This document shows positions 35,808-58,203 of a stretch of DNA of 64,000 nucleotides, in pieces; positions within the stretch are counted from its first letter, which is position 1; each line of letters opens with the position of its first letter. This DNA comes from an uncultured bacterium (GTDB taxonomy: Bacteria; Cyanobacteriota; Vampirovibrionia; Gastranaerophilales; Gastranaerophilaceae), in assembly GCA_958366705.1 (NCBI GenBank), contig CATXCB010000003.1, positions 16,193-80,192 on the forward strand, read 5' to 3'. A program made the translations under genes and the position numbers. Under the pieces are notes generated by a model. That model was not told where the DNA came from. It made no database searches and saw only the letters and a program-made list of their open reading frames with translations.

Positions 35808-35915
35808 GCTAAAATTCAGTAATAACAAGAAAATCGGGGGGGGGTAACCTTTTAAAGCTATACTCTGACAGCGTTCTAAGGTCTTTAGGAATATTTATTT
35901 TAAATTGTTTTGCAA
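35808..35915. repeat. left copy of ~110-bp inverted repeat (contains G9 tract 35836-35844)
   Basis: ggagctaaaaatgctaaaattcagtaataacaagaaaatc-G9-taaccttttaaagctatactctgacagcgttctaaggtctttaggaatatttattttaaatt is nearly identical to the reverse complement of 58081-58203. Confidence 0.85.
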
Positions 35916-35924
35916 ATCCAACCT

Positions 35925-36030
35925 CTCACTGTCATTCTGAACCGGTATGTCACCCTGAACTTGTTTCAGGGTCTCAACCCCATTGCACAACGAAGAGATT
36001 CCGAACCAAGTTCGTAATGACAGTGCTCGC
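35925..36030. repeat. MITE/REP-like palindromic units upstream of and overlapping the pilin start
   Basis: gtcattctgaaccggtatgtcaccctgaacttgtttcagggtc ... gattccgaaccaagttcgtaatgaca. Confidence 0.65.
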
Positions 36031-36748
36031 CAAGAATGCAGCATTTACACTTGCCGAAGTCCTCATTACTCTTGGGATAATTGGTGTTGTTGCTGCATTA
36101 ACTATACCTGGATTAGTTACTAAATATACCGAAAAAGCTACAGTGTCATCTGTTAAGGCTGTTTTTTCTATGCTATCTCAAGGTTTTCGCTTGGCGATTG
36201 ATGAGTATGGCGAAGTTTCAACTTGGTGCGATATTAAAGCTAGTTCTGACTATGATGATTGTTCTGCTATTATTGCAGAGAAACTTTCTCATTTTGTCAA
36301 AATGACACCTGTAACAAAATATAATGTAGTTTATAAAAATAGATTTAATAATGTTCATATGACTTTTACTAACAATATATGGGTATTAAATAATGGGACT
36401 GTATTGAATTTTGCGTCACACAATGGAGATAGATCTCCAAAAGACTGGTGTAAAACAAGTGCATCATCATCACTAGCATCGAGTTTATATTATGGTTCTT
36501 GTGGTTATATTTTTCTTGACATAAATGGTGCATCACTACCAAATATTGATGGAAGGGATGTCTTTAAATTGCATATATATTATGATGGTCTAGCTCCTGT
36601 TGGTAGAAAAAGAGACACTATTTGGGTGAATTCTTTTAATGATCAATGTATGGGTAAAAAAGAATTTACGTATTTTGGATCATGTACAGGCTGGGTAATT
36701 GAGAAAGAAAACATGGATTATTTACATTATACTAATTTAACTTATTAA
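36017..36748 (+). CDS. prepilin-type N-terminal cleavage/methylation domain protein (type IV pilin/pseudopilin-like)
   Basis: MTVLAKNAAFTLAEVLITLGIIGVVAALTIPGL N-terminus. 243 aa. Confidence 0.65.
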   Translation: MTVLAKNAAFTLAEVLITLGIIGVVAALTIPGLVTKYTEKATVSSVKAVFSMLSQGFRLAIDEYGEVSTWCDIKASSDYDDCSAIIAEKLSHFVKMTPVTKYNVVYKNRFNNVHMTFTNNIWVLNNGTVLNFASHNGDRSPKDWCKTSASSSLASSLYYGSCGYIFLDINGASLPNIDGRDVFKLHIYYDGLAPVGRKRDTIWVNSFNDQCMGKKEFTYFGSCTGWVIEKENMDYLHYTNLTY

Positions 36749-36776
36749 AAAAGAGAGGCAAATGCCCCTCTTTTTA
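36749..36776. terminator. bidirectional terminator hairpin (agagaggcaaatgcccctct) flanked by A/T runs
   Basis: Lies between convergent pilin (+) and yajQ (-). Confidence 0.5.
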
Positions 36777-37274
36777 TCTATAATTTGTAAATTGTAGCGG
36801 ATAATCGTACTTGTCTTCATTCTTTCGTAATTCTTGTATTACAGCTTGAAGATCATCTTTATCTTTACCGGAAACTCTTACTTGTTCCCCCTGAATTGAT
36901 GCTTGAACTTTTAATTTAGTACCTTTAATATCTGCTACAATTTTCTTTGCAAGTTCTTGTGTTAATCCTTTTTTTAGATTGAATACCTGACGAACATTTC
37001 CGCCCAACGCATTTTCTACACTTTGAGGATCCAGTATTTTTAGGCTAAGGTTTCTTTTTGATAATTTTGATTGAAGAATATCAACAATATTTCTTAATTT
37101 CATTTCGTCATTAGTTGTGATAGTAATTGATTTATCCACGTCAAGGTCAACTTGTGAATTTGAATTTTTTAAGTCAAATCGTGATGTCAATTCTCTTTTT
37201 ACCTGATCAACGGCATTAACAAGTTCTTGTTTGTCGTATTCTGATACAATATCAAAACTGCAATCTTTAGCCAT
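36774..37274 (-). CDS. yajQ: YajQ family cyclic-di-GMP/nucleotide-binding protein (UPF0234)
   Basis: End-to-end similarity to E. coli YajQ (SFDIVSEYDKQE...KLKVQASIQGEQVRVSGKDKDDLQAV). Confidence 0.85.
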   Translation of the reverse strand: MAKDCSFDIVSEYDKQELVNAVDQVKRELTSRFDLKNSNSQVDLDVDKSITITTNDEMKLRNIVDILQSKLSKRNLSLKILDPQSVENALGGNVRQVFNLKKGLTQELAKKIVADIKGTKLKVQASIQGEQVRVSGKDKDDLQAVIQELRKNEDKYDYPLQFTNYR

Positions 37275-37397
37275 AAATTTTATCCTCCATTTTTATTTGA
37301 ATGCACTAATTTTATAAATATAACATAAAAAAGTAGGATTTTTCAATCCTACCTAAAACTACACACTACCATTCTATTCTATTACAGGGAATTATAA

Positions 37398-37724
37398 TTA
37401 TTTTGTTTTTTGAAATAAGTTTTTGATAAATTGAACTATTTTTTTGCCGCCCTTAAAGCAAAGTATGCCTGCGGCTAATAGTCCGGTACCAACTAATACT
37501 TTTTTAATTATTGATTTATCACGTTCTTTTCTTGTTGGCTGGTATAAGTCGTTGTCTAAATTTCCTTTAATTCGTGTACCGTTCATTGTTCCGCTTATGC
37601 CAGGATAAAATGTTCCGCCCGCAAAAGTGAATGGCGGCATAGGCAGCATTCTGTTTAAATTATTTGTGCCAATATCTTCGGTTAAGCCCGGATTTGACAG
37701 ATTGTAACTACTGCTGTTAAACAT
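37398..37724 (-). CDS. hypothetical small protein with C-terminal TM anchor
   Basis: 108 aa. Confidence 0.35.
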   Translation of the reverse strand: MFNSSSYNLSNPGLTEDIGTNNLNRMLPMPPFTFAGGTFYPGISGTMNGTRIKGNLDNDLYQPTRKERDKSIIKKVLVGTGLLAAGILCFKGGKKIVQFIKNLFQKTK

Positions 37725-37839
37725 AACAAACCTTTTTAATAACCTTTTACCTGTATTTATATAAAGTATTTTTTTGTAAAATAATTTACTTTTTGAAAAA
37801 AATCTGGTTTAATATTCTTAACAATATAAGGGGAAAACT

Positions 37840-38145
37840 ATGAAGATGTTTAAGAGATGGTATGATGCAGATTCTGTTGTAAGTAAGGCAATTAATGATT
37901 TAGAGCATGCTCCTGAAGAAATTCAGGTAAGATGTGCAGACTATATTATTGAACTGCTGAAAGATGTGGAACTTGAAGAGTTGAGTTTAGAAGATCAGTA
38001 TAACTATATTATGCGCAGATGGTACGACAAAAATGTTAAAGTTTCTCATGCTGTTGAGTATTTGAGGTTATCTCCGGTTGAAGTCCGCAGGGAAACAGCT
38101 TTGAAAGTTGTTAAATATCTAAAAGAAATCTCTGATGTTTCTTAA
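37840..38145 (+). CDS. hypothetical protein
   Basis: 101 aa, clean ORF. Confidence 0.35.
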   Translation: MKMFKRWYDADSVVSKAINDLEHAPEEIQVRCADYIIELLKDVELEELSLEDQYNYIMRRWYDKNVKVSHAVEYLRLSPVEVRRETALKVVKYLKEISDVS

Positions 38146-38183
38146 TATTTAGACTTTTTTGCTTTTATATTGTTTAATATATT

Positions 38184-38546
38184 ATGGAGGGATATTTTGT
38201 GTCTGACGAGATAAATAAAAATGTAATAAATTTATTTTCTAGCCATAATAACAACCATATAACACCGGAGGTTAAAGATAAAATAAAATACTATGCCGGA
38301 TTTAATTATGTTAAAATAAAGAAAGATACAAACGGAAATAAATTTAATAAAGAACATTTGCTGAAATATTCTGCTAAATGTCATTACATGGTGACAGTTA
38401 TGCGAGAACTTGACAATGAAATTGTTTTATATTCTTATGATGTCCCAAATGATGATTTATTTAAATTTATGAAATCATTTGATGAAAATACATTGGATGG
38501 AAAAATTATTGAAATTGACAAATATTTCCCCGATGATTTAGCCTGA
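38184..38546 (+). CDS. hypothetical protein
   Basis: 120 aa, clean ORF. Confidence 0.35.
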   Translation: MEGYFVSDEINKNVINLFSSHNNNHITPEVKDKIKYYAGFNYVKIKKDTNGNKFNKEHLLKYSAKCHYMVTVMRELDNEIVLYSYDVPNDDLFKFMKSFDENTLDGKIIEIDKYFPDDLA

Positions 38547-38561
38547 AAGAGATAGAGAAAG

Positions 38562-41087
38562 ATGTGTTTTTTTAAGCAATACCACGAAAGTTTATTTAAA
38601 TGTTTTAAACCATATCAATACGTAGGAGGAGAATACTTATCTCATAATAAAGATTTTGAGAGTGCAAAGGTGAAATTTGCATTGGCTTTTCCAGATAAAT
38701 ATGAAATAGGTATTTCAAATCTAGGTGTTCGTGTGTTATATGAACTGATTAACCGAGAGCAAGACTATATGTGCGACAGAGTGTACGCTCCGGAACCGGA
38801 TTTTAATCCTCATCCGCTGTATTCACTGGAATCTAAAAGACCGCTTAAAGAATTTGACGCTGTTGGTTTTTCACTACAATACGAAATGGCATATCCAACA
38901 ATTTTAAAAATGCTTGAAATGGCAGATATCCCTTATAAAAACTCGGAAAGATCAGATGACGATCCCATTATTATTGCAGGTGGACCTTGTACATATAACC
39001 CGTTACCTGTAAGTGATTTTATTGATGTTTTTATGATTGGTGATGGTGAAGACTCTATAATTGAGGTTTGTAAGATTCTTGAGCAAACAAAGGGGCTTCC
39101 TAGAATTGATAGAATAAAAGCTCTTTGTGCTGGTGAAAGTTCAGGCAGATGGTCAAAGATTACGGGTGGTAAGGTTAAAAAACGTATTGCTCAATTATCT
39201 TATGATACAGCACTAAAATCATATCCTATTCCGTTTTCATCTTCAATTCAGGATAGAGCAGTTGTTGAAATTAGACGCGGATGTGGTCGTATGTGCCGTT
39301 TCTGCCAGCCCGGGCACGTTACTCTGCCTATTAGGGAAAGAAGTGCGGATGATATTATAAAAATTACAAAAGAACTGGTAAAAAATACAGGTTATGACGA
39401 GTATTCACTTTTATCTTTGTCTTCAAATGATTATGCGAATATAAATGAGGTTATAAAAGAGCTTTCTGTTGATTTTAATGATAAAAAGATTTCGGTTTCT
39501 CTTCCTAGCCAGAGAATTGACGGATTTAACCTTGAACTTGCAAATCTTGTTCAAAGTGTTAGAAAATCTACAATGACATTAGCTCCTGAGGCTGGCAGTC
39601 AGCGACTTCGTGATGTGATTAAAAAAAATATTACTGAAGAACAAATTATGAATGCCATTTTGACATTATATGAAAATGGCTGGTCAAGAGTTAAGTTGTA
39701 TTTTATTTGTGGGCTGCCGACAGAAACCCTCGATGACATGGATGAAATGGCAGAATTGTTCCGTAGAATAAGATATCGTTCAAGGCTAATGAAGAAAGAA
39801 AAAGGATTAAAGCATTCTCTAGATTTAACTTGTACGCTTTCTATATTTGTTCCGAAGCCGTTTACACCATTCCAGTGGTGTCCGCAGATGAGTTTAGAAG
39901 AAGTTACCGAGCATATTCACTATCTGATGGATCAGGTTAAACATATAAAAGGGGTAAAAGTTAATTATCACGAAAAATTTGTTTCCTTGTTAGAAGCTGT
40001 TTTAACCCGCGGTGATGATTCGTTATGCCGGTACATCGAAGCGCTTTATAAAAAAGGATGCTATCTTGATGCTTGGGGTGAATTTTTTGATAAAGATATA
40101 TGGTTTGAAACTGCAGATGAATTGAATATAGATTTAAATGCTCTTGCCCAAACTCAGTACTCAATCAATGAACCTTTGCCATGGGATTTTATAGATATAG
40201 GTATAAATAAAGAATGGTTTGTTGATGAATACAAAAAAGCCTATTCAGTTGATTCAAATTCTCCGCATTTTGTTTCTACATGCCAGCAAGGGTGTGTAAA
40301 TTGCGGAGTTTGCAAAAATTTTGGTGTTCGAAAAATTATGGATAAGCCATTCAAAGCTTCTGATGCGGCGCAATTGATTGTAAAAAAAGAGCCTGTAGAT
40401 CCTGCATTGTGTCCAAAAAATTTAAAAGAAGTGTTCAGGTATCGTGTTAAGCTTACCAAGACAGGTATTTTAAAGTATTTTTCACATTTGGATTGGCAAA
40501 ATACATTTTTTAAATCTATTACAAGATCAAATCTAAATGTAGCTTTTTCTTACGGGTATAATCCTACAATGAAGATATCAATGGGAGTTGCTCTGCCGCT
40601 GTTTTGTGAAAGTTTGACAGAGCTTGTTGATATTGAATTGTGGGAAGATGTTGATACTGAATTTGTTAAAAACGAATTGCAGAGAGTTTTGCCGGAAGAA
40701 TCTGATGTTATATCTGTGAATAAAATAGATAGAAGTGCTCCGTCTATTGATCAAACAGCAAGCTGGGCTGAATACAAAGTTAAGATATTTAACTCCGCAC
40801 TTTACGATTTTGATAAATTAGTATATAATACAGAAAAAGTTTTATCTTCTGATGAAATCTTAATTAAGAAGAAAAACAAAAAAGGTTTAGTAAAAACAGT
40901 AAACATAAAATCATCAATCGGGTCGCACCGATTTGAGGATGGATGTTTATTTATAGTATTAAAAACAGGGCAGGGTTCTGAAATTCCGCCTTTGAGAGCT
41001 GATGTTCTAATGGATATCATTGCTCCGGACGTAGTATTTGATATTACAAGAGTGAAATTTCTATCTGAAACCTTGCATGAGTTATAG
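38562..41087 (+). CDS. radical SAM protein (TIGR03960-like, B12-binding-like N-terminal domain) fused to DUF2344-like (TIGR03936-like) C-terminal domain
   Basis: CGRMCRFCQPGHV CxxxCxxC motif. 841 aa. The C-terminal ~230 aa form an extra domain. Lies directly upstream of, and overlapping, RNase E/G. Confidence 0.65.
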   Translation: MCFFKQYHESLFKCFKPYQYVGGEYLSHNKDFESAKVKFALAFPDKYEIGISNLGVRVLYELINREQDYMCDRVYAPEPDFNPHPLYSLESKRPLKEFDAVGFSLQYEMAYPTILKMLEMADIPYKNSERSDDDPIIIAGGPCTYNPLPVSDFIDVFMIGDGEDSIIEVCKILEQTKGLPRIDRIKALCAGESSGRWSKITGGKVKKRIAQLSYDTALKSYPIPFSSSIQDRAVVEIRRGCGRMCRFCQPGHVTLPIRERSADDIIKITKELVKNTGYDEYSLLSLSSNDYANINEVIKELSVDFNDKKISVSLPSQRIDGFNLELANLVQSVRKSTMTLAPEAGSQRLRDVIKKNITEEQIMNAILTLYENGWSRVKLYFICGLPTETLDDMDEMAELFRRIRYRSRLMKKEKGLKHSLDLTCTLSIFVPKPFTPFQWCPQMSLEEVTEHIHYLMDQVKHIKGVKVNYHEKFVSLLEAVLTRGDDSLCRYIEALYKKGCYLDAWGEFFDKDIWFETADELNIDLNALAQTQYSINEPLPWDFIDIGINKEWFVDEYKKAYSVDSNSPHFVSTCQQGCVNCGVCKNFGVRKIMDKPFKASDAAQLIVKKEPVDPALCPKNLKEVFRYRVKLTKTGILKYFSHLDWQNTFFKSITRSNLNVAFSYGYNPTMKISMGVALPLFCESLTELVDIELWEDVDTEFVKNELQRVLPEESDVISVNKIDRSAPSIDQTASWAEYKVKIFNSALYDFDKLVYNTEKVLSSDEILIKKKNKKGLVKTVNIKSSIGSHRFEDGCLFIVLKTGQGSEIPPLRADVLMDIIAPDVVFDITRVKFLSETLHEL

Positions 41088-43056
41088 TAAAGGATTTTTT
41101 ATGAACGACAGAAACAGAAATGCTAATCAAAGTATTGAAAAAAAGATTGTTATTGCAGAAAGAGACAATATTGCTGCAGTTTTAGAAAACAAAAAAGTTA
41201 CTGACTTTTTTATTCATCGAGGTGAAGTTTTGCTGGGAGATGTTTATCTTGCTACAGTTGATAATATTCTGCCAAGTATTGACGCAGCTTTTGTGAACGT
41301 TGGTACTGATAAAATGGGCTTTTTACATGCTCAGGATGTAATGGGTAAAGGAACTCTGAGAGAAAAACTTTCACCAAAACAAAAACTTGTTGTTCAAGTA
41401 GTAAAAGAGCCTACCGGGCACAAAGGGCCAAGAGTAACTACAGAAATTAGTTTACCTGGAAGATTTTTGGTTTTAATGCCAAATGAACCGGGGGTAAGTG
41501 TTAGTAAAAAGATTGAAAATTCAAAAGAACGTGCAAGATTAAAGGCAATTGTAAATTTGATTAAACCGGTTGGTGTCGGTGTAATTATAAGAACGGAAGC
41601 AGAGGGTCAGTCAGAATCTGATATTCAGGAAGATTTGGAAATTCTTTTGGAAAAATGGAATAATATCATTACTTCAGCTGAAACTTTGAATCCTCCAAAT
41701 TTAATTTACAGGGATCAGGATTTGCTTTATCGCGTTATTAGAGAAGCCTGCACAGATGATGTTAAAGAAATTATTGTTGATACTCCATTTGCACTTAACA
41801 GAGTGCAGTCTATCCTGCAAAACTGGCATATGTCAAAAGGTATTCAAGTGACATTATACAAAGGAACCGAACCTCTATTGATTGCTATGGATATTCATAA
41901 AGAGATAAAAGCTGCACTAAATGTAAAAGTTAATATGCCATCTGGCGGTTATCTGTTTATTCAACAAACTGAGGCTTTAACTGTTATTGACGTTAACAGC
42001 GGTAAATTTATAAGTTCAGCAACTCAAGATGAAACTATTTTAAAAACTAATATTGAAGCTGTTCATGAAATCGCAAGACAATTGCGCTTGCGTAATATAG
42101 GCGGAATGGTTATTGTTGACTTTATTGATATGATGTCAAGAGCTGATAAGCTGGCAATGATGGAAGAATTGGAGATTGCGCTTGAGCCGGACAAGGCAAA
42201 ACCTCAGGTTGGTCAATTGTCTGATTTAGGACTTGTTGAGTTGACAAGACACCGTCAGGGTCAATCTCTATCTGAAATCTTTACTAAAAAATGTCCTCAT
42301 TGTCAGGGGAGCGGTTATTCAATGATTGAATTTAACTTTGCAACTCCAACTGCAGAGGGTGAATATAGAGCAAAAGCTGCAAAATTGAAATTACCTACCG
42401 GAAATTACAAAAAGAATAACAAATTTAATAACAAAAATAACCAGCAGCAAAATGTTCAACCTCAAGAACAGGTTCAAGAGCAGCCGCAGAAAATTGCTAT
42501 AGAAACAGAACCATCTGTAGTGGCATCTGAAGAGGTTATCAAAAAAGAGAACAATAAACGTAATAAAAATAGAAAAAATAAATTTGATAAGAATAAACAG
42601 GTTCAAGACGCTCAAGAAGTTGTACAAAATCAACCTGCGGCAGAATTGCCGGAACAAAATAAAACGGAGATTGCAGAGCCAAAAGTTGAACAATCCGCTG
42701 CAGCTCCTGTGGTTAAAGAAGAAATAGTTCCGGTTTCTGAAGAATCATCAGAGCAAATTCAGGCAGCAGAAGAAGTTGTTCCTGAACCTAAGATAAAAGG
42801 AAAATCAAGAAAAAGAAAAGCTGCTGCAAAAAAATCCGCAGAACAATCGGTAGTATCTGAAGCTGCTCCTATTGCTGATAAGCAGGAATCTGTAGTTGTT
42901 GAGTCTTCACAGGAACTGCCTGCAAAAGAAGAGCCTCAAGTTGAAGATAAAACTCAGGAAGAGGAAAAACCTAAAAAAAGAACTAGACGTCCTAACAGAG
43001 GGACTTCAAAAACTTCTAAAAAATCCAAAAAATCAGAGGAATTAAGTGAAGAATAA
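41077..43056 (+). CDS. rne: ribonuclease E/G family protein with disordered K/E/Q-rich C-terminal tail
   Basis: S1 domain, MGFLHAQDV and VVKEPTGHKGPRVTTEISLPGRFLVLMP. ~420-aa catalytic core plus a ~240-aa low-complexity tail. Confidence 0.85.
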   Translation: MSYSKGFFMNDRNRNANQSIEKKIVIAERDNIAAVLENKKVTDFFIHRGEVLLGDVYLATVDNILPSIDAAFVNVGTDKMGFLHAQDVMGKGTLREKLSPKQKLVVQVVKEPTGHKGPRVTTEISLPGRFLVLMPNEPGVSVSKKIENSKERARLKAIVNLIKPVGVGVIIRTEAEGQSESDIQEDLEILLEKWNNIITSAETLNPPNLIYRDQDLLYRVIREACTDDVKEIIVDTPFALNRVQSILQNWHMSKGIQVTLYKGTEPLLIAMDIHKEIKAALNVKVNMPSGGYLFIQQTEALTVIDVNSGKFISSATQDETILKTNIEAVHEIARQLRLRNIGGMVIVDFIDMMSRADKLAMMEELEIALEPDKAKPQVGQLSDLGLVELTRHRQGQSLSEIFTKKCPHCQGSGYSMIEFNFATPTAEGEYRAKAAKLKLPTGNYKKNNKFNNKNNQQQNVQPQEQVQEQPQKIAIETEPSVVASEEVIKKENNKRNKNRKNKFDKNKQVQDAQEVVQNQPAAELPEQNKTEIAEPKVEQSAAAPVVKEEIVPVSEESSEQIQAAEEVVPEPKIKGKSRKRKAAAKKSAEQSVVSEAAPIADKQESVVVESSQELPAKEEPQVEDKTQEEEKPKKRTRRPNRGTSKTSKKSKKSEELSEE

Positions 43057-43351: not shown

Positions 43352-43578
43352 TGAAGAAACATGCAGTTGGAATTTTGGAATTACTTATTGTTATTTTCCT
43401 TGCGATAATAATTTATTTTACCTGTTTTCATTCACAATATGGAAGAAAAAATCCGTTTGCAGATAATTCTAGAATAAATTCACAACAAGAAATTATAGAT
43501 ACAAAAATTCAAGAAATTGAGAACACAAAGGCTTTAAAAAAGCAAATTGAAAAGAATTTAAGTGAGGGTAATGAATAG
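43351..43578 (+). CDS. hypothetical small membrane protein
   Basis: 75 aa with one TM helix. Confidence 0.3.
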   Translation: MKKHAVGILELLIVIFLAIIIYFTCFHSQYGRKNPFADNSRINSQQEIIDTKIQEIENTKALKKQIEKNLSEGNE

Positions 43579-44247: not shown

Positions 44248-44250
44248 AAT

Positions 44251-47065: not shown

Positions 47066-47139
<74 letters not shown>

Positions 47140-47267: not shown

Positions 47268-47294
47268 GATTCCGAAACAAGTTCGTAATGACAA
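47268..47294. repeat. single MITE/REP-like unit
   Basis: ggattccgaaacaagttcgtaatgaca, nearly identical to the unit at 35990-36016. Confidence 0.6.
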
Positions 47295-47472: not shown

Positions 47473-47670
47473 ATGAAATTGACACCAAGAGAACTGGAAG
47501 TTTGCGAATGTATCGTTGCAGGTTTAAATAATAACGAAATTGCAGCAAAACTATTTATCAGTAAACACACTGTTAAAACATACGTGAGTCAGATAATGAA
47601 TACATTAAATGCGAAAAATAGAACAAACGTTGCTTATATCCTGGGAAAAGAAAATATTATAAACCTGTAA
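47473..47670 (+). CDS. LuxR/GerE-type helix-turn-helix transcriptional regulator (stand-alone HTH)
   Basis: LTPRELEVCECIVAGLNNNEIAAKLFISKHTVKTYVSQIM. GGAGG lies 9 nt upstream of ATG 47473. Confidence 0.6.
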   Translation: MKLTPRELEVCECIVAGLNNNEIAAKLFISKHTVKTYVSQIMNTLNAKNRTNVAYILGKENIINL

Positions 47671-49568: not shown

Positions 49569-50358
49569 TTATAACTGTGATTCTCCAATAGCTTTTTTTG
49601 ATTCTGGGGTTGGCGGGTTAACGGTTTTAAACAAGGTTAAAAAACTTTTGCCTGATGAAAGTTATATATATTATGGGGATACGCTGCATGTTCCTTACGG
49701 CGAAAAATCTAAAGAGGAATTGTTAGAGTACTCTGATAAAATTATTAAATTTTTTGAGTCGAAACACTGCAAGGCCGTTGTTATGGCCTGTAACACAACT
49801 TCTTCTGTAATATATGATTCTATCAAAGATAAATATAATTTAAAAATTTACCCAATCGTGCAGTCAGTTGCTGAAATTCTAGCGGAAATGCCAATTGATA
49901 GACTTGGCGTTTTTGCAACAAGAGCTACAATAAATTCTAACGTTTATCCTAAAGAGATTGGAAAATACAATCCGCGGATGTCAGTATTCGGGCAACACTG
50001 TCCAAATTGGGTAAATATTGTAGAAAACAATACTCTGGATGAGGGTTCAAGTATTGAAATTGTTAAAACTGATTTAGATAATATGATGAAAAATAATCCT
50101 GAAAAAATAGTTTTAGGATGTACTCATTATCCTTTTTTATTAAAAATATTGTCAAAATTCGCGCCGGCTGAATTATTTATAGATCCTGCAGAAAATTTTG
50201 CACAGTATATTAAAGCAGATTTGGAAAAATCATCTTTACTGGTTAAAAATAAACTAAAACAAGAAGAATTTTATGTAAGTTCTGCTCCGGAAAAATTTTT
50301 TGAAGCTTCAAAAATGTTTTATAATTTAAAAACAAAACCTGAATTATTAACTTTTTAA
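49552..50358 (+). CDS. murI: glutamate racemase
   Basis: FDSGVGGLTVL, MACNTTS and GCTHYP motifs. Confidence 0.9.
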   Translation: MSISNNYNCDSPIAFFDSGVGGLTVLNKVKKLLPDESYIYYGDTLHVPYGEKSKEELLEYSDKIIKFFESKHCKAVVMACNTTSSVIYDSIKDKYNLKIYPIVQSVAEILAEMPIDRLGVFATRATINSNVYPKEIGKYNPRMSVFGQHCPNWVNIVENNTLDEGSSIEIVKTDLDNMMKNNPEKIVLGCTHYPFLLKILSKFAPAELFIDPAENFAQYIKADLEKSSLLVKNKLKQEEFYVSSAPEKFFEASKMFYNLKTKPELLTF

Positions 50359-51333
50359 TATAATGTCAAGGCATTCGTCATATGTAGAAATTTCAATGAT
50401 GTTCGGGTTTTTAAACAGTCTTTTATTTGTCACATCCAGTTCTGTCACATTTTCCTTAACTGCATATATTTTTATATCACGACTCAGGGCTTCAAATACC
50501 GGCGCAGCCCCTAGAGAGTTATGAGGCATAACAAGAAAATCAAGATTTGAAATATTTATTCCCTTATTTTTATCTGATGATATTTGAGGAGCATTTGAGA
50601 GTCCGAGCAATATACACGGTAAAAAAGTTGGAGTAATATATTCAGAGGCTGCCTTACTATTTACAATATTAGTTGTGATGCTGAAATCCGTGAAAGCCGG
50701 AGAATGAGCACAAGGTATTTTAAAATATTTAGATATGCAGTGCGAAATTATAGCCTCAACTCCTCCAACCGGATCTGGTCCACTACCATTAGCATAGTCC
50801 GTGTTTGTATCTTCAGGGTCCTCAAACAGACAAACAATACCAATTGCGTTGCAGCCCTTTTTTATTAAATATTTTGCAGCATCTATTATGGTTGAAATGT
50901 TATTTACGCTTCCTGTTGCTACTCCATTGTTTGTAAGGTAAAAATTAACTCCCACTTTTTGTGCAGTAATCACATATTCAGATATATCAACACCATATAC
51001 AGTTTTTACGGCATTTTGCGTATTTATATGAATATTTAGAACATCTTCCGGTATTGCTCTGTCGTAGATAATTCCTATTTTATTATCTTCTGCCGGAACT
51101 AAATTTATTTCATTTTTAAAAAAACAATCCAGTGTAAAACCTTCTGTGTAAAGCATGTTTTGTGTTATACCGGAAAAGCACCCCGCATTAACAACGTTGG
51201 GATTAACAATCAAGTTTGTATATTTCGCAAATTTTCTTGCATAAACGCTTGCATCACCTGCATATCCTCCAATTGAAGCTCCAATACCTGTAGGTACAAT
51301 AAACGCTCCGAGTTTTTTGTTTTCATATGTCAT
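50347..51333 (-). CDS. hypothetical protein (DUF-type, conserved Gly-rich N-terminus)
   Basis: 328 aa. AFIVPTGIGASIGGYAGDA N-terminus. Co-oriented with and overlapping the downstream amidase gene. Confidence 0.45.
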   Translation of the reverse strand: MTYENKKLGAFIVPTGIGASIGGYAGDASVYARKFAKYTNLIVNPNVVNAGCFSGITQNMLYTEGFTLDCFFKNEINLVPAEDNKIGIIYDRAIPEDVLNIHINTQNAVKTVYGVDISEYVITAQKVGVNFYLTNNGVATGSVNNISTIIDAAKYLIKKGCNAIGIVCLFEDPEDTNTDYANGSGPDPVGGVEAIISHCISKYFKIPCAHSPAFTDFSITTNIVNSKAASEYITPTFLPCILLGLSNAPQISSDKNKGINISNLDFLVMPHNSLGAAPVFEALSRDIKIYAVKENVTELDVTNKRLFKNPNIIEISTYDECLDIILKS

Positions 51334-52700: not shown

Positions 52701-52805
52701 AGAATTACTATACTATATTTTAAAAAATTTTATAATTTCGTAAATTTATTTAATAATTGTGTTATTTGGTACTCATTATGGTAATATTAATTATACAAGG
52801 GATAG

Positions 52806-54575
52806 ATGATGAGAAGAGAACAAGATAAAATTCGTAAAAAATCCAGAGGAAAATTTTGTAATAATGTTACAGATGGATTAAATATACTTTACTGTATTGC
52901 AATTTTAGTCTTAATAGTTCACCTTTTTATTGTTCAAATATTTGATTTTCAGAAATACCGAGAAAGAGGCAAAATGCAACGTGCAAGTCATGATTTTGCT
53001 GTTCGTGGAGATATTTTTGACAGACACGGTATAAAACTTGCGACCGATAGAATTTATTACAATATATATGCACGTCCTGTTGATTATTCAGATAAAGAAA
53101 CACCCGAAAAAATAGCAAAATTATTTGCACCAATTCTGGGTATCCCGGAAAAAACATTGTGCACTAAAATATCAAATAAAAAAATTCCTGTAATTGCTAT
53201 TAAAAAAGATGTTGATAGGGATACAGCGAAAAAAATAATGAAAGTTATTGCAGATAATGGTTTTCGTTCAATAAGTCTTGATAAAAAAAATACAAGAGAA
53301 TATCCGCAAGGTGTTTTTGCATCACACGTTCTGGGCTTTTATAATTTTGATGCAAATGTATCAAATGGGGTTGAGCTTACTGCTAAAGACAAGTTAGAGC
53401 ATGTTGTGAGAGCAACACGCTATCAAAGAACACGTGATGGAAAAATTATATATAATTTTTCAACTGATCCTGTGGCTCCAACAATGAATCCAAAAGGTCA
53501 AGATGTTGTACTTACAATCGATGCAGCAATTCAACACGTATGTGAAAAAGAACTCCAAAAGATTATTGAAGAAAAAGACGCCCTTAGGGGGGCTGTTATT
53601 GTTATGAATCCTAAGAATGGTGAAATTCTTGCTTATGCTGTGTATCCGACATATGACCCAAATAAATTTCAAAAAGCAACTAACACCGAAATTAAAAACT
53701 GGACATTAACAGATGTATATCCTCCAGGTTCCACTTTTAAAACAATAACTGTTACAAGTGCCATGGAATTAGGGAAAATTAATGAGAATTCAATCATTGA
53801 AGATAAAGGCCGCATGAAATTTGGCGGTTATACGATTGAAAACTATGACTACAAAGAAAAAGGGGCTCCTGGAAAAATTGATTTGGTATACCTTTTTGAA
53901 CACTCAAGTAATATTGGCTCCGTTAATGTTGGATTCTTAATGACTCATTCTGAATTTTATAATATGCTTAGAAAATTCGGATTTGGTGAAAAGTCAGGTA
54001 TTGATTTACCGGGTGAATCTTCAGGACTGCTGGCTTCTCCAAAATTCTGGGATAGAGGTCTGCATATGACTATGTCATACGGATATGGAACATCTGTATC
54101 CATTATGCAAATGGTTTCAGCTGTATCTGCTCTTGCTAATGACGGGGTTCGGGTAACTCCGCATGTTATCAAGTATTCTCCAGAAGAAGAGGCTGAAAAA
54201 ATCAAACATATACCTACAGTTTCCGCCCAAACAGCCAGAACCATAACAAAACTTCTTGCAATGAGTGTAAATAATGGCAGATCTTGCATAAAGATGGATA
54301 AATATAATGTTGCAGCAAAGACCGGGACTTCAAGAAAACCGCTTGAAAATGGAACTGGATACTCCGGTGCTATGTATACTTCAACTATAGGCTACCTACC
54401 TGCAAGTGATCCTAAAGTATTGATATATGTAGTTGTTGATAGTGCTAAAAAAGGCCCTGTATGGGGAAATACTGTGGCTGGGCCTATTTTTCATGAAGTT
54501 GCGGAACAGACAGCTAGAATACTTGATTTAAAACCTGACAAAGTTCCGGCTCAGCAGAATAAAAAGATTAATTAG
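52806..54575 (+). CDS. ftsI: class B penicillin-binding protein (FtsI/PBP2-type transpeptidase)
   Basis: N-terminal TM segment, STFK (SxxK), SSN and KTGT motifs. Immediately upstream of murE. Confidence 0.85.
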   Translation: MMRREQDKIRKKSRGKFCNNVTDGLNILYCIAILVLIVHLFIVQIFDFQKYRERGKMQRASHDFAVRGDIFDRHGIKLATDRIYYNIYARPVDYSDKETPEKIAKLFAPILGIPEKTLCTKISNKKIPVIAIKKDVDRDTAKKIMKVIADNGFRSISLDKKNTREYPQGVFASHVLGFYNFDANVSNGVELTAKDKLEHVVRATRYQRTRDGKIIYNFSTDPVAPTMNPKGQDVVLTIDAAIQHVCEKELQKIIEEKDALRGAVIVMNPKNGEILAYAVYPTYDPNKFQKATNTEIKNWTLTDVYPPGSTFKTITVTSAMELGKINENSIIEDKGRMKFGGYTIENYDYKEKGAPGKIDLVYLFEHSSNIGSVNVGFLMTHSEFYNMLRKFGFGEKSGIDLPGESSGLLASPKFWDRGLHMTMSYGYGTSVSIMQMVSAVSALANDGVRVTPHVIKYSPEEEAEKIKHIPTVSAQTARTITKLLAMSVNNGRSCIKMDKYNVAAKTGTSRKPLENGTGYSGAMYTSTIGYLPASDPKVLIYVVVDSAKKGPVWGNTVAGPIFHEVAEQTARILDLKPDKVPAQQNKKIN

Positions 54576-54591
54576 TTAAGGGAGATATAAA

Positions 54592-56067
54592 ATGAAATTA
54601 GATGAATTAATTGAATATTTGGAATATAGAGATTTAATAAATTTTAAAAATGTTGAAATTACAGGGATATCATATAATTCAAAAACAACTAAAAAGGGAG
54701 ATATTTTTGTTTGTCTTGCAGGCGAGCACACTGATGGACATGAATATGCGCAGATGGCTGTTGAAAACGGAGCTGCAGCACTTCTTGTTGAACACAAAGT
54801 TGATGGTATAAAAATTCCTCAGGTTCAGGTAGATTCAACCAGACATAAGATTGCAGATATAGCCGACAGATTTTATTCAAGCCCGTCAAAAGGTATTAAT
54901 TTGATTGGTATAACCGGAACAAATGGCAAGACTACTGTTACTCACCTGATACAAAAAATATTTGAAGAAAATTCTGAAAAATGCGCACTTATCGGAACTC
55001 TTGGATATAAATTATCTTCCGGAGGTGAGTATCGAGATGCCAAGCATACAACACCTCAGGCTCCGGAACTTCAGGCAACGCTCAGAATGATTAAAGATGT
55101 TGAAAAGATTGATAATGTTGTAATGGAAGTTAGTTCTCATGCTCTTGAACAAAATAGGGTTGGCGGCTGCAGATTTAACGGGGCGGTTTTAACTAATTTA
55201 ACACAGGATCATTTGGATTATCATATTACAATGGAAAATTATTTCAAAGCTAAGGCTTTGTTGTTTGAAAGATTGACCGATGGAGATTTTGCCGTTATAA
55301 ATCTGGATGATGAGTATGGTGACAAATTTTTATCGGTTATACCTGACGGAGTTAGAAAATTAACTTATGGCGTAAAAAAACAAGCTGATGTAATGGCAAA
55401 AGATATTAATTTTTCATTGAATGGTGCAGAATTTACATTGCTGTATAACGGTCAAGAATATTCAGTTAACCTGCATATGAACGGAATGTTCAGTGTTTAT
55501 AACGTTTTAGCAGCGCTAACTGCTTCTATTGCTATGAATATTGATATTAGCATAGCTCTAAAAGCTCTTCAAAATGTGCATGGTGTTGCTGGCAGATTTG
55601 AAGTTGTAAATAAAAAACCTCTTGTTATTGTTGATTATGCACACACTCCTGACGGGTTGGAAAATGTATTAAAATCAGCAAGAGAAATAACTCAAAAAGA
55701 TGGAAAATTGATTTGTTTATTCGGGTGCGGCGGTGATAGAGATGCGACAAAAAGACCGAAAATGGGAGCTATTGCACAAAAGCTTGCAGATAAAATAGTT
55801 ATCACAAGTGATAATCCGCGTTCTGAGGATCCGCAGCAGATAATTACTGATATTATTGCAGGTTTAAAATCCGTAGATCCTGATATTGTCACTGTTGAAC
55901 CGGATAGAGGAGAGGCAATCGCTTTACTAAAAACAATTGCAAACAATAATGATGTCGTACTCATTGCAGGTAAAGGACATGAAGATTATCAAATTCTGAA
56001 AGATAAAACTATTCATTTTGATGATAGAGAAGAGGCAAGAAAAGTTTTTGCAGGAAGTGTTATATAA
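54592..56067 (+). CDS. murE: UDP-N-acetylmuramoyl-L-alanyl-D-glutamate--2,6-diaminopimelate ligase
   Basis: GITGTNGKTT and the DNPR motif (meso-DAP-type specificity). Confidence 0.9.
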   Translation: MKLDELIEYLEYRDLINFKNVEITGISYNSKTTKKGDIFVCLAGEHTDGHEYAQMAVENGAAALLVEHKVDGIKIPQVQVDSTRHKIADIADRFYSSPSKGINLIGITGTNGKTTVTHLIQKIFEENSEKCALIGTLGYKLSSGGEYRDAKHTTPQAPELQATLRMIKDVEKIDNVVMEVSSHALEQNRVGGCRFNGAVLTNLTQDHLDYHITMENYFKAKALLFERLTDGDFAVINLDDEYGDKFLSVIPDGVRKLTYGVKKQADVMAKDINFSLNGAEFTLLYNGQEYSVNLHMNGMFSVYNVLAALTASIAMNIDISIALKALQNVHGVAGRFEVVNKKPLVIVDYAHTPDGLENVLKSAREITQKDGKLICLFGCGGDRDATKRPKMGAIAQKLADKIVITSDNPRSEDPQQIITDIIAGLKSVDPDIVTVEPDRGEAIALLKTIANNNDVVLIAGKGHEDYQILKDKTIHFDDREEARKVFAGSVI

Positions 56068-56972
56068 TGAAAACAAAACTATTAGTTGAACAGCATTTTC
56101 ACGGCTGCTATGGTGTAGACTTTAATACTGCATCGGTAAGCGATATCAGAGATTTGGCTTATCAAATATTAAAAGAGGGAGTCGGATTTATATTTCCGAC
56201 ACTGGTTACTGATAGTATTGAAAATACTAAGAAGCAAATTAAAATAATCAAAGATGCAGCTGATAAAACTACTTCTGATATGGCTAAAATCTGCGGAGTT
56301 CACCTTGAGGGAATATTTTTAAATCCAGCCAAGAAAGGAATTCATAATGCAGACTATTTTTTGGCACCAACACTTAAAAATTTCCAAACTCTTGAGGATG
56401 ATTTTATAAAAATTGTAACTTTGGCTCCTGAAATTGCGGACGCAGAATTATTAACTTATTTACGCTCCAAAGGAATAAAGGTTCAGGCAGGACACTGCAC
56501 AGGTTCTGATTTGAGCTTGTGTGATGCAACCACCCATACATTTAACGCGATGAGCGGAATTACGCACAGAGGTGAAAGTACAGCTCTCAGCGCGCTGATA
56601 AATGATAATATTTATACTGAAATAATTGGAGACGGAGTTCATGTTTCTGATTCTGCAATAAAACTTTTGTATAAAACCAAGCAAATGAATAAAATATTGC
56701 TTGTATCAGACTGTCTGCCTTGCACGCATAGCAATCTAAAAGAATTTGAGTTTGCCGGTGAAAAAATTTATTATGATGGCGTTAAAGCAACCTCTGCAGA
56801 GGGAACACTTGCCGGAAGTACCAAATTACTACCTGACATAGTAAAAATTCTTGGCAAAAAAGATTTATTTATAAAGCAATACATATCAAATTCTTACGAT
56901 TACCACAATCTTGTATCTGAGGGTGAAATTGAATGGGATGAAGATTATAATATTGTGTCAGTTACTTATTAA
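56067..56972 (+). CDS. N-acetylglucosamine-6-phosphate deacetylase-like amidohydrolase, short form
   Basis: QHFHGCYGVDFN (D.H.HG..G.D metal-binding start) and GVHLEG. Only 301 aa, against ~380 aa for canonical NagA. Confidence 0.45.
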   Translation: MKTKLLVEQHFHGCYGVDFNTASVSDIRDLAYQILKEGVGFIFPTLVTDSIENTKKQIKIIKDAADKTTSDMAKICGVHLEGIFLNPAKKGIHNADYFLAPTLKNFQTLEDDFIKIVTLAPEIADAELLTYLRSKGIKVQAGHCTGSDLSLCDATTHTFNAMSGITHRGESTALSALINDNIYTEIIGDGVHVSDSAIKLLYKTKQMNKILLVSDCLPCTHSNLKEFEFAGEKIYYDGVKATSAEGTLAGSTKLLPDIVKILGKKDLFIKQYISNSYDYHNLVSEGEIEWDEDYNIVSVTY

Positions 56973-57732
56973 ATAAATTTTTTATCATTGTTGCTGTTGA
57001 TACTCCACCTTTTTCAATTGACTGGCAACCTCCGTCCTTTAATTGTATGGGGTCACCATTAGAACGAGCTATGAAAGAGAATAAATCGTACCCCCATTTG
57101 TTAGGTCCTTTCTTACCGTTAACGTCAATCGCAAAAAGTTGGAATCCTGAATAAAATAATATTATTGTACCATCTAAGAGAACCCAGGCTTCTCTATCAT
57201 TGTGGATGCGGGATTGTCTCCAACCAGCACAATTAGCAGTTTGTTTATTTATATCATTTTCATCTTTATCCGGATGTGAGTCAGCAATTATAGTATCAAT
57301 ACCTTTATAATTAGGAATACAACCATTTTTATAAGCTTTATTTTTACAAATTTGCGTAACTTTAAGTATTCCTTTCATTTCATCTTTTACAGCATTACAT
57401 TGACTAAAATGTCCATTATAATCATCTGGAAGTGGACTTCCATCAGACATTTCATATTTTTTACAATCACCTTGTTCAGTATATTCAACACAACTAGCTG
57501 ATTGATATGGGCTGTTGAGCCAGTAGTAACACTCCGGAGTACTATCCATATTGTTTTCAACAATTTTAAAAGCTTGTTGCATTCGCGAATATTGTTCCTT
57601 AAATTGATTTTTAATAACAAGTTTTTGGCATTTTGTTAACAACCCCGGTAAAGTTATAGCGGCAACTATACCAATAATACCAAGAGTGATAAGAACTTCA
57701 GCAAGAGTGAATGCTGCTTTGCTATGCGTCAT
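56962..57732 (-). CDS. prepilin-type N-terminal cleavage/methylation domain protein (pilin-like), paralog of 36017..36748
   Basis: MTHSKAAFTLAEVLITLGIIGIVAAITLPGL. The track ORF extends to 57816 through the repeat units. Start 57732 was chosen by analogy with the left copy (aatgac... inside the repeat). Confidence 0.6.
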   Translation of the reverse strand: MTHSKAAFTLAEVLITLGIIGIVAAITLPGLLTKCQKLVIKNQFKEQYSRMQQAFKIVENNMDSTPECYYWLNSPYQSASCVEYTEQGDCKKYEMSDGSPLPDDYNGHFSQCNAVKDEMKGILKVTQICKNKAYKNGCIPNYKGIDTIIADSHPDKDENDINKQTANCAGWRQSRIHNDREAWVLLDGTIILFYSGFQLFAIDVNGKKGPNKWGYDLFSFIARSNGDPIQLKDGGCQSIEKGGVSTATMIKNLFNK

Positions 57733-58075
57733 TCCAAACATGTTTCGGAATCTATTATCTTGAGATGCTGAAACATGTTCAGCATGACAGATTCGTTTAT
57801 TATTCTGAGCCTGCACGAGCAGAGGGCGAGAATGTAGTGGAGTCCCGTTTAATGCGAGTGCAGAGGTATAGTCATTCTGAGGGAGCAGGCGACCGAAGAA
57901 TCTATTATTACTGTTCTGCTTATTAAATACTTCAGCGAAAGCCTCAGTATGACAGTCGGATTGATTTTGAGGACAAACATGTGTTCTGCTGTATTCGTCA
58001 TTCTGAGCGGATGCGAAGAATCTCTGAGTTGTGCGTTTGGCATAAGACCCTGAAACTAGTTCAGGGTGACGGTAC
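57722..58075. repeat. array of MITE/REP-like palindromic units
   Basis: gtcattccaaacatgtttcggaatc, gatgctgaaacatgttcagcatgac, gtcattctgagggagcaggcgaccgaagaatc, gtcattctgagcggatgcgaagaatc and accctgaaactagttcagggtgac. Confidence 0.7.
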
Positions 58076-58080
58076 GGGAT

Positions 58081-58203
58081 TACATTATGAGGGAAATTTA
58101 AAATAAATATTTCTAAAGACCTTAGAACGCTGTCAGAGTAAAGCTTTAAAAGGTTACCCCCCCCATTTCCTTGTTATTACTGAATTTTAGCACTTTTAGC
58201 TCC
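58081..58203. repeat. right copy of ~110-bp inverted repeat (contains C8 tract 58157-58164)
   Basis: Reverse complement matches 35808-35915 with a handful of mismatches and a homopolymer-length difference. Confidence 0.85.

Follow-up and report, generated by a model that had tools for sequence, protein, structure and literature searches.

The locus examined here raises a simple question. In the window, that is the whole stretch of 64,000 nucleotides analysed, which comes from a low-GC (33%) uncultured human-gut bacterium, two almost identical sequences lie in inverted orientation on either side of a 22-kb segment, and a pilin-like gene is found downstream of each. What are these repeats? The arms, 35793-35915 (+) and 58206-58081 (-), are ~95% identical. 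The inverted repeats reported in an earlier note were recovered both by a repeat finder, as the pairs 35793-35842/58157-58206 (94%), 35837-35942/58059-58164 (83%, ungapped) and 35949-36001/58018-58070 (83%), and by gapped alignment, which showed near-identity over ~120 nt from AAAGGAG onward, with five substitutions and ATC+G9 in one arm versus AT+G8 in the other. The limits given previously (35808 and 58203) have to be moved outwards, as the similarity begins at the Shine-Dalgarno sequences (35793 and 58206). Two arm cores of 22-28 nt had exactly 2 occurrences in the window, against 0 expected from 100 shuffles. The hairpin GTCACCCTGAACTTGTTTCAGGGTC / ...CTAG... already described as common to the two arms is indeed present in both and folds with -15.2 and -10.9 kcal/mol, and the two downstream ORFs do have the announced N-terminus AFTLAEVLITLGIIG(V/I)VAA. 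The gene content previously listed for the bracketed segment agrees with the annotation of its ORFs: YajQ, an rSAM protein with RNase E/G, SDH beta/alpha, an AAA ATPase, tRNA-Arg, two Amidase_3 proteins, Glu racemase, FtsI and MurE, together with an Amidohydro_1 match that is weak. A DUF3326 gene is likewise located in this segment.

The features of the left cassette, on the plus strand, are the following.

35789-35791: stop codon of the CHASE2-adenylate cyclase gene, directly before the left Shine-Dalgarno
35793..35799 (+): left Shine-Dalgarno AAAGGAG, read from the sequence
35806..35835 (+): real start ATG and nine codons (MLKFSNNKKI), with 30 nt from start to tract as in the other copies
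35836..35844 (+): poly-G tract, G9, OFF; reading from the ATG ends at TAA 35845-35847, after 13 codons
35843..36043 (+): 67-codon translated leader, in frame with the pilin (GGT AAC CTT ... GCA)
35845-35915 (+): family-conserved block within the leader
35931-35942, 35949-35973, 35996-36022 (+): palindromic units within the leader
36017-36019 (+): internal ATG of the leader, without Shine-Dalgarno
36044..36748 (+): mature left pilin-like protein (FTLAEVLITLGIIGVVAAL... to the stop codon)

The right cassette, on the minus strand, has the corresponding features.

58259-58231 (-): sigma-70-like TTATCA-17-TAAAAT, upstream of the right Shine-Dalgarno
58200..58206 (-): right Shine-Dalgarno AAAGGAG, read from the sequence
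58165..58193 (-): start GTG and 26 nt (VLKFSNNKE-)
58157..58164 (-): poly-G tract, G8 (C8 on the plus strand), with the preceding C missing, OFF
57712..58158 (-): 149-codon translated leader, in frame with the pilin, mostly palindromic and repeat modules
57735-57733 (-): internal ATG of the leader
56962..57711 (-): mature right pilin-like protein (FTLAEVLITLGIIGIVAAI... to the stop codon)

In the window, the left and the right copy are both in the OFF state. The start frame of the right copy closes at TAA 58148-58146, and one extra G would bring it in frame. The pilin frame is open back to 35813 in the left leader, with 0 stops where the other frames have 4 and 6, and back to the G tract in the right leader, with 0 stops compared to 19 and 8.

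A search for further copies, as suggested in the earlier note, gave at least 16 of them in MAG MGYG-HGUT-00385; the 20-nt core was found in 16 copies, all in this one gut MAG, and six further copies of the element were present in two metagenome assemblies. Nearly all element copies with readable downstream sequence precede an AFTLAEV pilin-like ORF. The anatomy of the element is as follows: a strong Shine-Dalgarno, ATG or GTG with nine codons, a poly-G tract, stops in two frames and a third frame open for 57-172 codons, which passes through the "palindromic units" to the prepilin cleavage site. AGGAG stands 6-8 nt ahead of the start codon in 22/22 distinct upstream sequences, and start and G tract are 30 nt apart in each of the 21 other distinct copies and 29 nt apart in the window right copy, so that a hypermutable repeat (G8-G13) lies in the 5′ coding region past a start bearing a Shine-Dalgarno. 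G or C runs of at least 7 are otherwise rare: 18 of the 19 present in 180 kb sampled from the window and MGYG-HGUT-00385 (both of 33% GC) were inside these elements. The tract is conserved family-wide and across species, distant members from other genomes (35-38% identity) having an ATG preceded by a Shine-Dalgarno, 9-10 unrelated codons, G11, a long leader and AFTLAEV.

The leaders were then compared by reading frame. Among 23 distinct leaders (172-517 nt), there was 1 stop in the pilin frame compared to 205 and 164 in the other two, which demonstrates a maintained open frame, and the distance from tract to cleavage site was 1 mod 3 in 21/21 leaders whose tract is followed by an intact TAACC. 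The palindromic-unit motifs always occupied one codon phase (19/19 and 20/20); a second phase is likewise stop-free, yet unused. These units resemble REP/BIME-type elements in being short imperfect palindromes of two or three types, single or clustered, and found here also in plain intergenic DNA (4912-4985 and 47268-47293), but they differ by lying inside a maintained ORF, in one codon phase and stop-free, which is unexpected of REPs.

The stop asymmetry and the constant leader phase bear directly on whether the element could be a riboswitch, an attenuator or a small regulatory uORF, with the pilin gene using an ATG of its own and the palindromes creating the open frame as a by-product. This would agree with the conservation of the leaders at the nucleotide rather than the amino-acid level, with the hairpins formed by the units, with the intergenic occurrence of the same units and with the internal ATG of both window genes. 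Column entropy in the leader is 0.35, 0.19 and 0.37 at codon positions 1, 2 and 3, and amino-acid-level constraint is weak. The bias in stops and phase argues against such a leader, as does the fact that several paralogs are devoid of an internal start codon: L025 has no in-frame ATG, GTG or TTG from tract to cleavage site, and L019, L024, L028, L029 and L033 have no start codon within the usual prepilin distance. The only internal start candidate with a Shine-Dalgarno is a distant TTG. Nor was a structured cis-regulatory RNA found, either as an Rfam model or as a fold beyond shuffles: a scan of the whole window at the Rfam gathering threshold matched only two tRNA genes, the left arm at E<=10 gave only chance-level matches, and the leader folded no better than shuffled sequences (z = -0.76). 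Moreover, the ON alleles described below are single long ORFs. We consequently regard a non-coding regulatory leader as very improbable. The earlier suggestion that the 110-bp element is a cis-regulatory leader specific to this pilin family thus keeps its family-specificity, given the 16 or more copies in a single MAG, and loses the 5′ UTR or leader RNA, since the start of a long ORF and its first codons lie in the element. Both window genes and about half of the paralogs retain an ATG in frame 7-9 codons ahead of the cleavage site, from which the prepilin leader would be short and canonical; the hairpin covering this ATG is weak (-5 to -6.6 kcal/mol), and genes that retain it may thus be translated independently of the tract.

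The earlier note had also pointed to the poly-G as a slipped-strand element, and this is supported: the tract is a length-variable frame switch, found at one locus as G8, G9, G10 and G11 with two intact in-frame alleles. At the left locus, G8 (L048) is ON with a single 313-aa ORF, called as P0046, and G11 (L033) is ON with a 410-aa ORF (P0004), whereas G9 (window) stops after 13 codons and G10 (L001, L003) after 16 codons, both being OFF. The flanks of the tract-length alleles are 97-99% identical, and those of the left-locus G9 and G10 alleles 99%. At the right locus, the tract ranges across samples from G8 to G13, the orthologs having G9 (five times), G12, G13, G13 followed by CC replacing TAACC, and G11+A; these lengths, like the others, are taken from consensus assemblies of different samples, in which a short-read homopolymer may be off by one. 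One right-locus scaffold has an N gap within the tract, and some contigs break at the element. Length polymorphism at one locus with intact ON alleles is thereby demonstrated. Among the 42 copies examined, 41 were OFF, the sole ON copy having been fetched because it was ON, and the OFF copies were divided 22 and 19 between the two off-frames. G9 or G10 was present in 35/42 copies and in 16/16 of those of MGYG-HGUT-00385, and about 3/35 contigs were ON at the left locus. As a neutral three-state switch would leave about one third of the copies ON, the ON state is either counter-selected in bulk or bypassed by another expression route.

Such a route could lie in RNA-level recoding, where G9 and G10 would be the normal state and a fraction of the product would be shifted into frame by transcriptional slippage or by +1/-1 ribosomal slippage (GGG-GGG-GGG-UAA). 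The near-even division of the OFF copies and the uniform G9 or G10 of the 16 MAG copies point in this direction. The G9 state places a stop codon right after the tract, an arrangement comparable to that of the prfB +1 site. Long homopolymers are known sites of transcriptional slippage (reviewed in reference 44 of PMC9187656, as cited there). However, G9 needs a +1 and G10 a -1 shift, and these opposite shifts speak against a single programmed event on the ribosome; there are also intact alleles with G8 and with G11, and the spread from G8 to G13 is the signature of DNA slippage. Recoding, which does not exclude slipped-strand switching, seems to us unlikely as the normal mode. Were it true, all paralogs would be expressed constitutively at a low level, and the DNA ON alleles would be occasional over-expressers.

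We therefore favour, with a probability of about 0.75, that the arms are the 5′ cassettes of contingency genes from a type IV pilin-like (DUF6613) family, present in at least 16 copies per genome and subject to slipped-strand phase variation. Translation would begin at the strong Shine-Dalgarno with ATG or GTG inside the "110-bp element", and the ribosome would reach the hypermutable poly-G after ten codons. With a tract equivalent to G8, G11 or G14, it would read in frame through a leader of ~60-185 residues, built in part from in-frame palindromic modules, and arrive at the prepilin site K-A-A|F-T-L-A-E-V and the pilin body. Other tract lengths would bring the ribosome to a stop within 1-4 codons, each off-frame having a TAA, and no pilin would result. 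Slippage of the tract at replication would thus switch each paralog ON or OFF independently, probably also within a clone.

The inverted arrangement had led to a quite different proposal, RecA-mediated inversion of the 22-kb segment, with the arms as substrates of a functional homologous recombination. Arms of ~120 nt, ~95% identical and in inverted orientation, are suited to it, and the leaders do recombine: the right window element scores 0.90 against the left type compared to 0.83 against its own orthologs, and leader length at one locus varies between strains. Paralogous leaders do exchange sequence in a non-reciprocal manner, and this is the part of the recombination idea that survives. 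In addition, one contig (L006 = L011) joins the left pilin gene to a different upstream locus; with 3.5x coverage and a three-way mosaic, it is likely a chimeric assembly. No inversion was seen in 16 junction-spanning contigs of different samples (0/16; 11 left, 5 right), which are consensus assemblies in which a rare minority is possible. Of these, 15/16 had the window arrangement, and all 11 left and all 5 right contigs agree with pilinL lying away from ilvD and pilinR adjoining it. The flanking inverted repeats are thus accompanied neither by both orientations among populations or strains nor by a changed promoter-gene linkage or a nearby invertase. Indeed, no recombinase domain was detected among the segment ORFs scanned, and the left cassette is deleted in a related lineage (at least 24 contigs). 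Finally, since start, Shine-Dalgarno and tract are inside the repeat and the pilin bodies inside the segment, exchange gives equivalent cassettes; inversion would only swap the adjacency of pilin and flanking genes, with no obvious regulatory effect. We hold functional inversion to be extremely unlikely, and RecA-mediated inversion as first proposed is not borne out. The two window arms are no special pair: each is the front end that one member of the pilin-like family has in common with the other, and their inverted orientation is incidental.

The two window pilin-like proteins share 25% identity overall. Both matched TIGR02532 (NCBIfam; 19.2 and 20.8 bits, cut-off 16.3) and PF07963 (Pfam N_methyl; 21.3 and 23.1, cut-off 21.2). 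They have the N-terminal motif G/A|F-x-x-x-E in front of a hydrophobic helix, and the pilin fold with a long alpha-1 helix on an antiparallel beta-sheet; with type IV prepilins and pseudopilins of these families they have in common the [K]-x-A|F-T-L-x-E motif, the hydrophobic N-terminal helix and the alpha-beta fold. In contrast, position -1 is Ala instead of Gly, and the globular domain is DUF6613, an uncharacterised family. The short positively charged leader is missing. Known type IV prepilin leaders have roughly 5-30 residues, while ON alleles encode 70-190 residues ahead of the cleavage site from the sole start bearing a Shine-Dalgarno, and a short leader would be possible only in paralogs with the internal ATG, which has no Shine-Dalgarno. 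Prepilin peptidase may nevertheless cleave this long cytoplasmic leader, and the product may be assembled or displayed at the surface. No genes for prepilin peptidase or PilB/PilC-type machinery were seen among the scanned window ORFs.

Several known phase-variable systems resemble the present one. Neisseria pilC1/pilC2 carry a poly-G (about 9-15) in the 5′ coding part (Jonsson et al. 1991, as cited in PMC5320596), and share with our family a 5′ coding G tract in a pilus-related gene, of strain-variable length with one of three lengths in frame. PilC, however, is a protein of the tip or of assembly, encoded in one or two copies, compared to at least 16 pilin-like subunit genes here; its gene has no long repeat-built leader, and its tract lies in a Sec signal peptide, while ours precedes a prepilin (class III) cleavage site. 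The Neisseria opa paralogs, with CTTCT repeats in the leader-coding region (PMC5320596), are similar as many dispersed surface-protein paralogs, each with its own N-terminal leader repeat, switching independently and with 5′ regions held similar through recombination; they differ by a pentamer instead of a homopolymer repeat, by outer-membrane beta-barrel instead of pilin-like products and by about 11 copies instead of at least 16. In Bifidobacterium breve, pili are under a G-tract replication-slippage ON/OFF switch, the reference genome being OFF and ON variants a minority enriched in vivo (PMC9187656). This species, too, is a gut commensal whose pilus production depends on an intragenic G tract, with an OFF reference or consensus, but its pili are sortase-dependent, in a high-GC Gram-positive, encoded at two loci and not by a multigene family, with the tract inside the first pilus gene compared to ten codons past the start here. 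The poly-G contingency loci of the Campylobacter "phasome" (PMC6321876) likewise belong to a low-GC genome whose rare G/C runs of at least 8 cluster in phase-variable genes for surface structures; their targets are capsule, LOS and flagellar glycosylation, without a shared 5′ cassette.

As tract length sets the reading frame, the element is an on/off switch of a known type, though with an unusual gene organisation, and not an inversion device; it belongs to a multigene pilin-like family with an unusually long translated leader. We know of no prepilin with a leader of 60-185 residues. It is conceivable, though we consider it rather doubtful, that the family is normally expressed by RNA slippage on the G run and that this leader of REP-like modules is a functional cytoplasmic pro-region released by a peptidase. 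If so, these proteins would be long-leader prepilins of a class not described before, in which the leader lengthens as mobile palindromes are domesticated.

The inverted similarity claimed by the earlier note was confirmed with a repeat finder and by gapped alignment. The left and right arms, two elements of about 110 bp near 35.8 kb (+) and 58.2 kb (-), were paired by the repeat finder at 35793-35842 and 58157-58206 with 94% identity, the similarity extending as 35837-35942/58059-58164 and then as 35949-36001/58018-58070. The gapped alignment showed about 120 nt of near-identity, broken by five substitutions and by a difference at the tract (ATC+G9 in the left arm, AT+G8 in the right). The window has exactly two occurrences of each of two core strings; shuffles gave an expectation of zero. 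Both arms face inward, each upstream of an ORF with the N-terminus AFTLAEVLITLGIIG(V/I)VAA, and both pilin-like ORFs (pilinL and pilinR) exceeded the Pfam N_methyl and NCBIfam TIGR02532 thresholds. Outside the shared N-terminus the two proteins were only 25% identical. The genes found between the arms agreed with those listed previously. In the window pair, the similarity starts at the SD sequence, and the following features were assigned.

35793-35799 (+): SD AAAGGAG, start of the left element
35806 (+): ATG start codon of the left element, six bases past the SD
58206-58200 (-): SD AAAGGAG, start of the right element
58193 (-): GTG start codon of the right element, six bases past the SD

In both arms the start codon and nine further codons are followed by the G tract, with TAACCTTTTAAAG immediately 3' of it. 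After the tract, a TAA lies in the start frame at G9 and another, three codons further on, in the frame of the +1 state; the third frame (GGT AAC CTT TTA AAG ...) is that of the pilin ORF. In each window copy no stop interrupts this frame between tract and pilin, a stretch of 67 codons in the left copy and 149 in the right. Each arm opens a cassette made of SD, start codon, poly-G tract and translated leader, in which the tract length places the start codon in (ON) or out of (OFF) the pilin frame. Both window copies are OFF, the left one needing -1 or +2 G and the right one +1. The left start codon varies among samples, being ATG or GTG (L001-L010, L048). A sigma-70-like promoter about 30 nt 5' of the SD is common to many copies (e.g. 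TTGATA-17-TGTGTATAAT). For the left copy, a consensus promoter scan found no sigma-70 site; its transcription may come from read-through of the cyclase gene.

The poly-G tract had been proposed as a phase-variation element, a reading that was supported and that was sharpened by placing the element at the coding start. The left locus (cyclase, cassette, yajQ) was compared across samples. Tract length differs at this one locus and includes in-frame alleles, two of which are called in databases as the long proteins P0004 and P0046.

Tract alleles at the left and right loci (L-numbers, contigs)
Left locus, G9: OFF; window and five other samples
Left locus, G10: OFF; L001, L003
Left locus, G9+A: OFF; L010
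Left locus, G11 with the post-tract TA replaced by GG: OFF; L002, the immediate TAA being thereby lost
Left locus, G11: ON; L033, called as the 410-aa P0004 (MLKFSNNKKIGGGGNLLKLYSDS...AAFTLAELL...)
Left locus, G8: ON; L048, whose 196-nt leader is that of the window; called as the 313-aa P0046
Right locus, window: G8
Right locus, other samples: G9 (five times), G12, G13, G13 then CC instead of TAACC, G11+A

The flanks of the G9 and G10 alleles of the left locus were 97-99% identical. In 180 kb sampled from the window and the human-gut MAG MGYG-HGUT-00385 (both 33% GC), 18 of the 19 G/C runs of at least 7 were these tracts. In one scaffold (L037, about 3860) a stretch of N falls exactly within the G tract, and five of ten ilvD contigs (L039-L043) end within or beside the element. 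The cassettes therefore break assemblies of this organism systematically and so affect MAG contiguity.

We then considered the leader. The suggestion that the element acts as a UTR or leader RNA was contradicted, the element being a coding start. Counted across 23 different leaders of 172-517 nt, stop codons numbered one in the pilin frame, against 205 and 164 in the other two frames. Of the leaders, 21 keep TAACC intact behind the tract, and in every one of these the distance from tract end to cleavage-site codon was 1 mod 3, across more than a dozen different lengths. Palindromic-unit motifs within the leaders kept a constant codon phase (H-x-E in 19/19, R-F- in 20/20), a second phase being equally stop-free. 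Column entropy was 0.35, 0.19 and 0.37 at codon positions 1, 2 and 3, a coding signature that is only modest: constraint at the amino-acid level is weak, and the uninterrupted frame is mainly what is maintained. A word-indexed protein search with the 78-aa leader returned no candidate, although the sequence is present with hardly a change in P0004 and in the cluster representative P0046; this false negative makes word-index negatives for short queries unreliable. For a structured RNA, Rfam gave nothing credible, either at the gathering threshold over the whole window or at E<=10 on the left arm. The 238-nt leader folded no better than shuffles in a single-sequence fold, and the structured-RNA idea was therefore abandoned.

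Translation could alternatively begin at an internal ATG, which would give a canonical short leader. Such an ATG is kept in about half of the paralogs, including both window copies (MTVLAKNAA↓F and MTHSKAA↓F), but it has no SD, and the hairpin over it is weak. Sequestration of the internal AUG by a hairpin was down-weighted, the hairpins there being weak. Paralog L025 has no ATG, GTG or TTG between tract and cleavage site, five further paralogs have no start codon within the usual range of a prepilin leader, and among internal start candidates an SD was present on one only, a distant TTG. The upstream start is preceded by AGGAG in 22 of 22 distinct copies and lies 30 nt from the tract in all of them except the window's right copy (29 nt).

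Tract states, as read from consensus assemblies, were OFF in 41 of 42 copies, the two off-frames accounting for 22 and 19 of these; the sole ON copy had been fetched because it was ON. At the left locus, about 3 of 35 contigs were ON. This excess of OFF may reflect selection against ON cells in bulk populations, as with the pilus G tracts of B. breve, which are OFF in the reference genotype (PMC9187656). That consensus assemblies are nearly always OFF leaves room for slippage at the RNA level as a normal route of expression.

The palindromic unit types of the leaders, AGATTCCGAAACAACTTCGGAATGAC and GTCATCCTGAACTTGTTTCAGGATC, were also found in intergenic DNA far from pilin genes, at 4912-4985 and 47268-47293, one set lying between divergent genes and the other beside tRNA-Arg. 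Since they occur in ordinary intergenic DNA, they behave like REP-type elements of this genome. In distant members (P0083, at L047 6001-7221, and P0070), long leaders contain a second, degenerate pilin N-terminus, M..KGFTLAEV, directly followed by ILNLFQ(D/G)L, which is a palindromic unit read in the other open frame. HTEALAEVSNK-type modules in the leaders of this species resemble FTLAEV remnants. Judged from these sequences, the leaders may be built of older pilin 5' ends broken by palindrome insertions.

Further copies of the element were sought, as the earlier note had advised, and an AFTLAEV pilin-like ORF followed every copy with enough downstream sequence. A degenerate 25-mer located six copies on contigs of two metagenome assemblies. 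The invariant 20-mer GGGGGTAACCTTTTAAAGCT gave 16 copies in the species-representative genome collection, all in the single MAG MGYG-HGUT-00385; a 21-mer from the window had zero matches in that collection because the other copies differ at two positions. The pilin frame was open back to the tract in 10 of 11 readable MAG copies, over 65-183 codons. One MAG copy (L023, 3700-4300) has a single in-frame leader stop, with 17 open codons before the cleavage site and the overall phase kept; it may be a decaying family member. At E<=1e-5 the family counts over 6,000 proteins in databases, many of which already bear the annotation PF20318/DUF6613, and one distant member is labelled Muribaculaceae, probably by a binning error. 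In other genomes, members 35-38% identical to the window protein show SD-ATG, 9-10 unrelated codons, G11, a long unrelated leader and AFTLAEVLITLGIIG. The tract is thus conserved while the surrounding leader sequence is not, as expected of a selected contingency element. Automatic annotation misses the family: gene callers put the start at an internal ATG or divide the gene, and the proteins are listed under a DUF name. No database record for the right pilin begun at its internal ATG was found on look-up.

Inversion of the 22-kb segment between the arms, also proposed earlier, was not supported, as junction-spanning contigs show no inverted arrangement. PilinL lies away from ilvD in 11 of 11 contigs over the left junction, ten of them reading cyclase-pilinL-yajQ, and murE-amidohydrolase-pilinR adjoins ilvD in 5 of 5 contigs over the right junction. 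Because SD, start and tract lie within the repeat, exchange would yield equivalent cassettes. In a closely related lineage (cyclase variant P0033, at least 24 contigs including L049-L053), the whole left cassette is absent (equivalent of window 35792-36650): the cyclase is 5 codons longer, and after it come about 100 nt left over from the pilin 3' end, then the shared terminator and yajQ. The repeat pair is therefore not conserved, and these sequences indicate that the left locus is a presence/absence polymorphism by deletion. The window's right element (58081-58206) resembles the left type (0.90-0.91) more than it does its orthologs at the right locus (0.83; L034-L036, 3760-3900), which suggests gene conversion, or a shuffling of modules, between paralogous leaders. 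The right leader measures 442 nt in the window versus 178 nt in other strains, with a right pilin 91% identical, and non-reciprocal exchange between leaders is evident from the comparison. In one contig (L006 = L011, ERZ824600 NODE_1751, 3.5x coverage), the left pilin and yajQ connect at 9500-10000 with the cassette of the plsX-fabH side (MSKFNNIKKI), by way of a post-tract segment that matches a third copy exactly (L014/L024 type). The contig represents either a true recombinant between cassettes or a low-coverage assembly chimera.

Taken at the level of sequence, the data support slipped-strand phase variation of a pilin-like family. Slippage during replication would change the G-tract length and so put the SD-driven start in or out of frame with the long leader-prepilin ORF, each of at least 16 paralogs switching independently. 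Prepilin peptidase would then cleave at K-A-A↓F after the long leader, which is topologically compatible with cleavage because the prepilin leader remains cytoplasmic. The switch resembles the poly-G switch of pilC and the opa family, in which many paralogs are each switched by a repeat located where the leader is encoded (PMC5320596), as well as the poly-G loci of Campylobacter (PMC6321876) and the pilus G tract of Bifidobacterium breve (PMC9187656). Unlike in these systems, at least 16 type IV pilin-like genes of one family are governed here, the tract lies ten codons past the start and upstream of the class III signal, and the leader is 60-185 residues long and built partly of in-frame palindromic modules that also occur as ordinary intergenic palindromes. 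Literature searches, within the library searched, found no account of this family or switch.

Three observations hint at non-photosynthetic (Melainabacteria-like) Cyanobacteriota: a DUF3326 protein at 50347-51333 (-) with E = 1e-84, a DHAD at 58249-59949 (+) whose best solved relative is the cyanobacterial 6nte (Synechocystis), and [FeFe]-hydrogenase neighbours in distant relatives (L046). A small ORF at about 47473-47670 (+), just 5' of the amidase gene, has a translation (…RELEVCECIVAGLNNNEIAAKLFISKHTVKTYVSQIMNTLNAKNRTN…) that, judged by eye, resembles a free-standing LuxR/GerE-type HTH.

Phase variation through homopolymers is textbook knowledge for pathogens such as Neisseria, Haemophilus, Campylobacter and Helicobacter and, to our knowledge, is barely documented in uncultured gut commensals. 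We also know of no precedent for a translated palindromic-repeat leader upstream of a prepilin cleavage site. Interest attaches chiefly to the length of this translated leader, to the OFF bias and to the occurrence in a gut commensal, and the palindrome-built leader provides concrete material for asking how coding sequence can tolerate or recruit REP-like elements. In a human-gut lineage that is abundant but uncultured, one family of pilin-like surface proteins appears to be controlled by at least 16 independent poly-G switches; the combinatorial repertoire that this would create at the cell surface bears on adhesion and on escape from IgA or phage.
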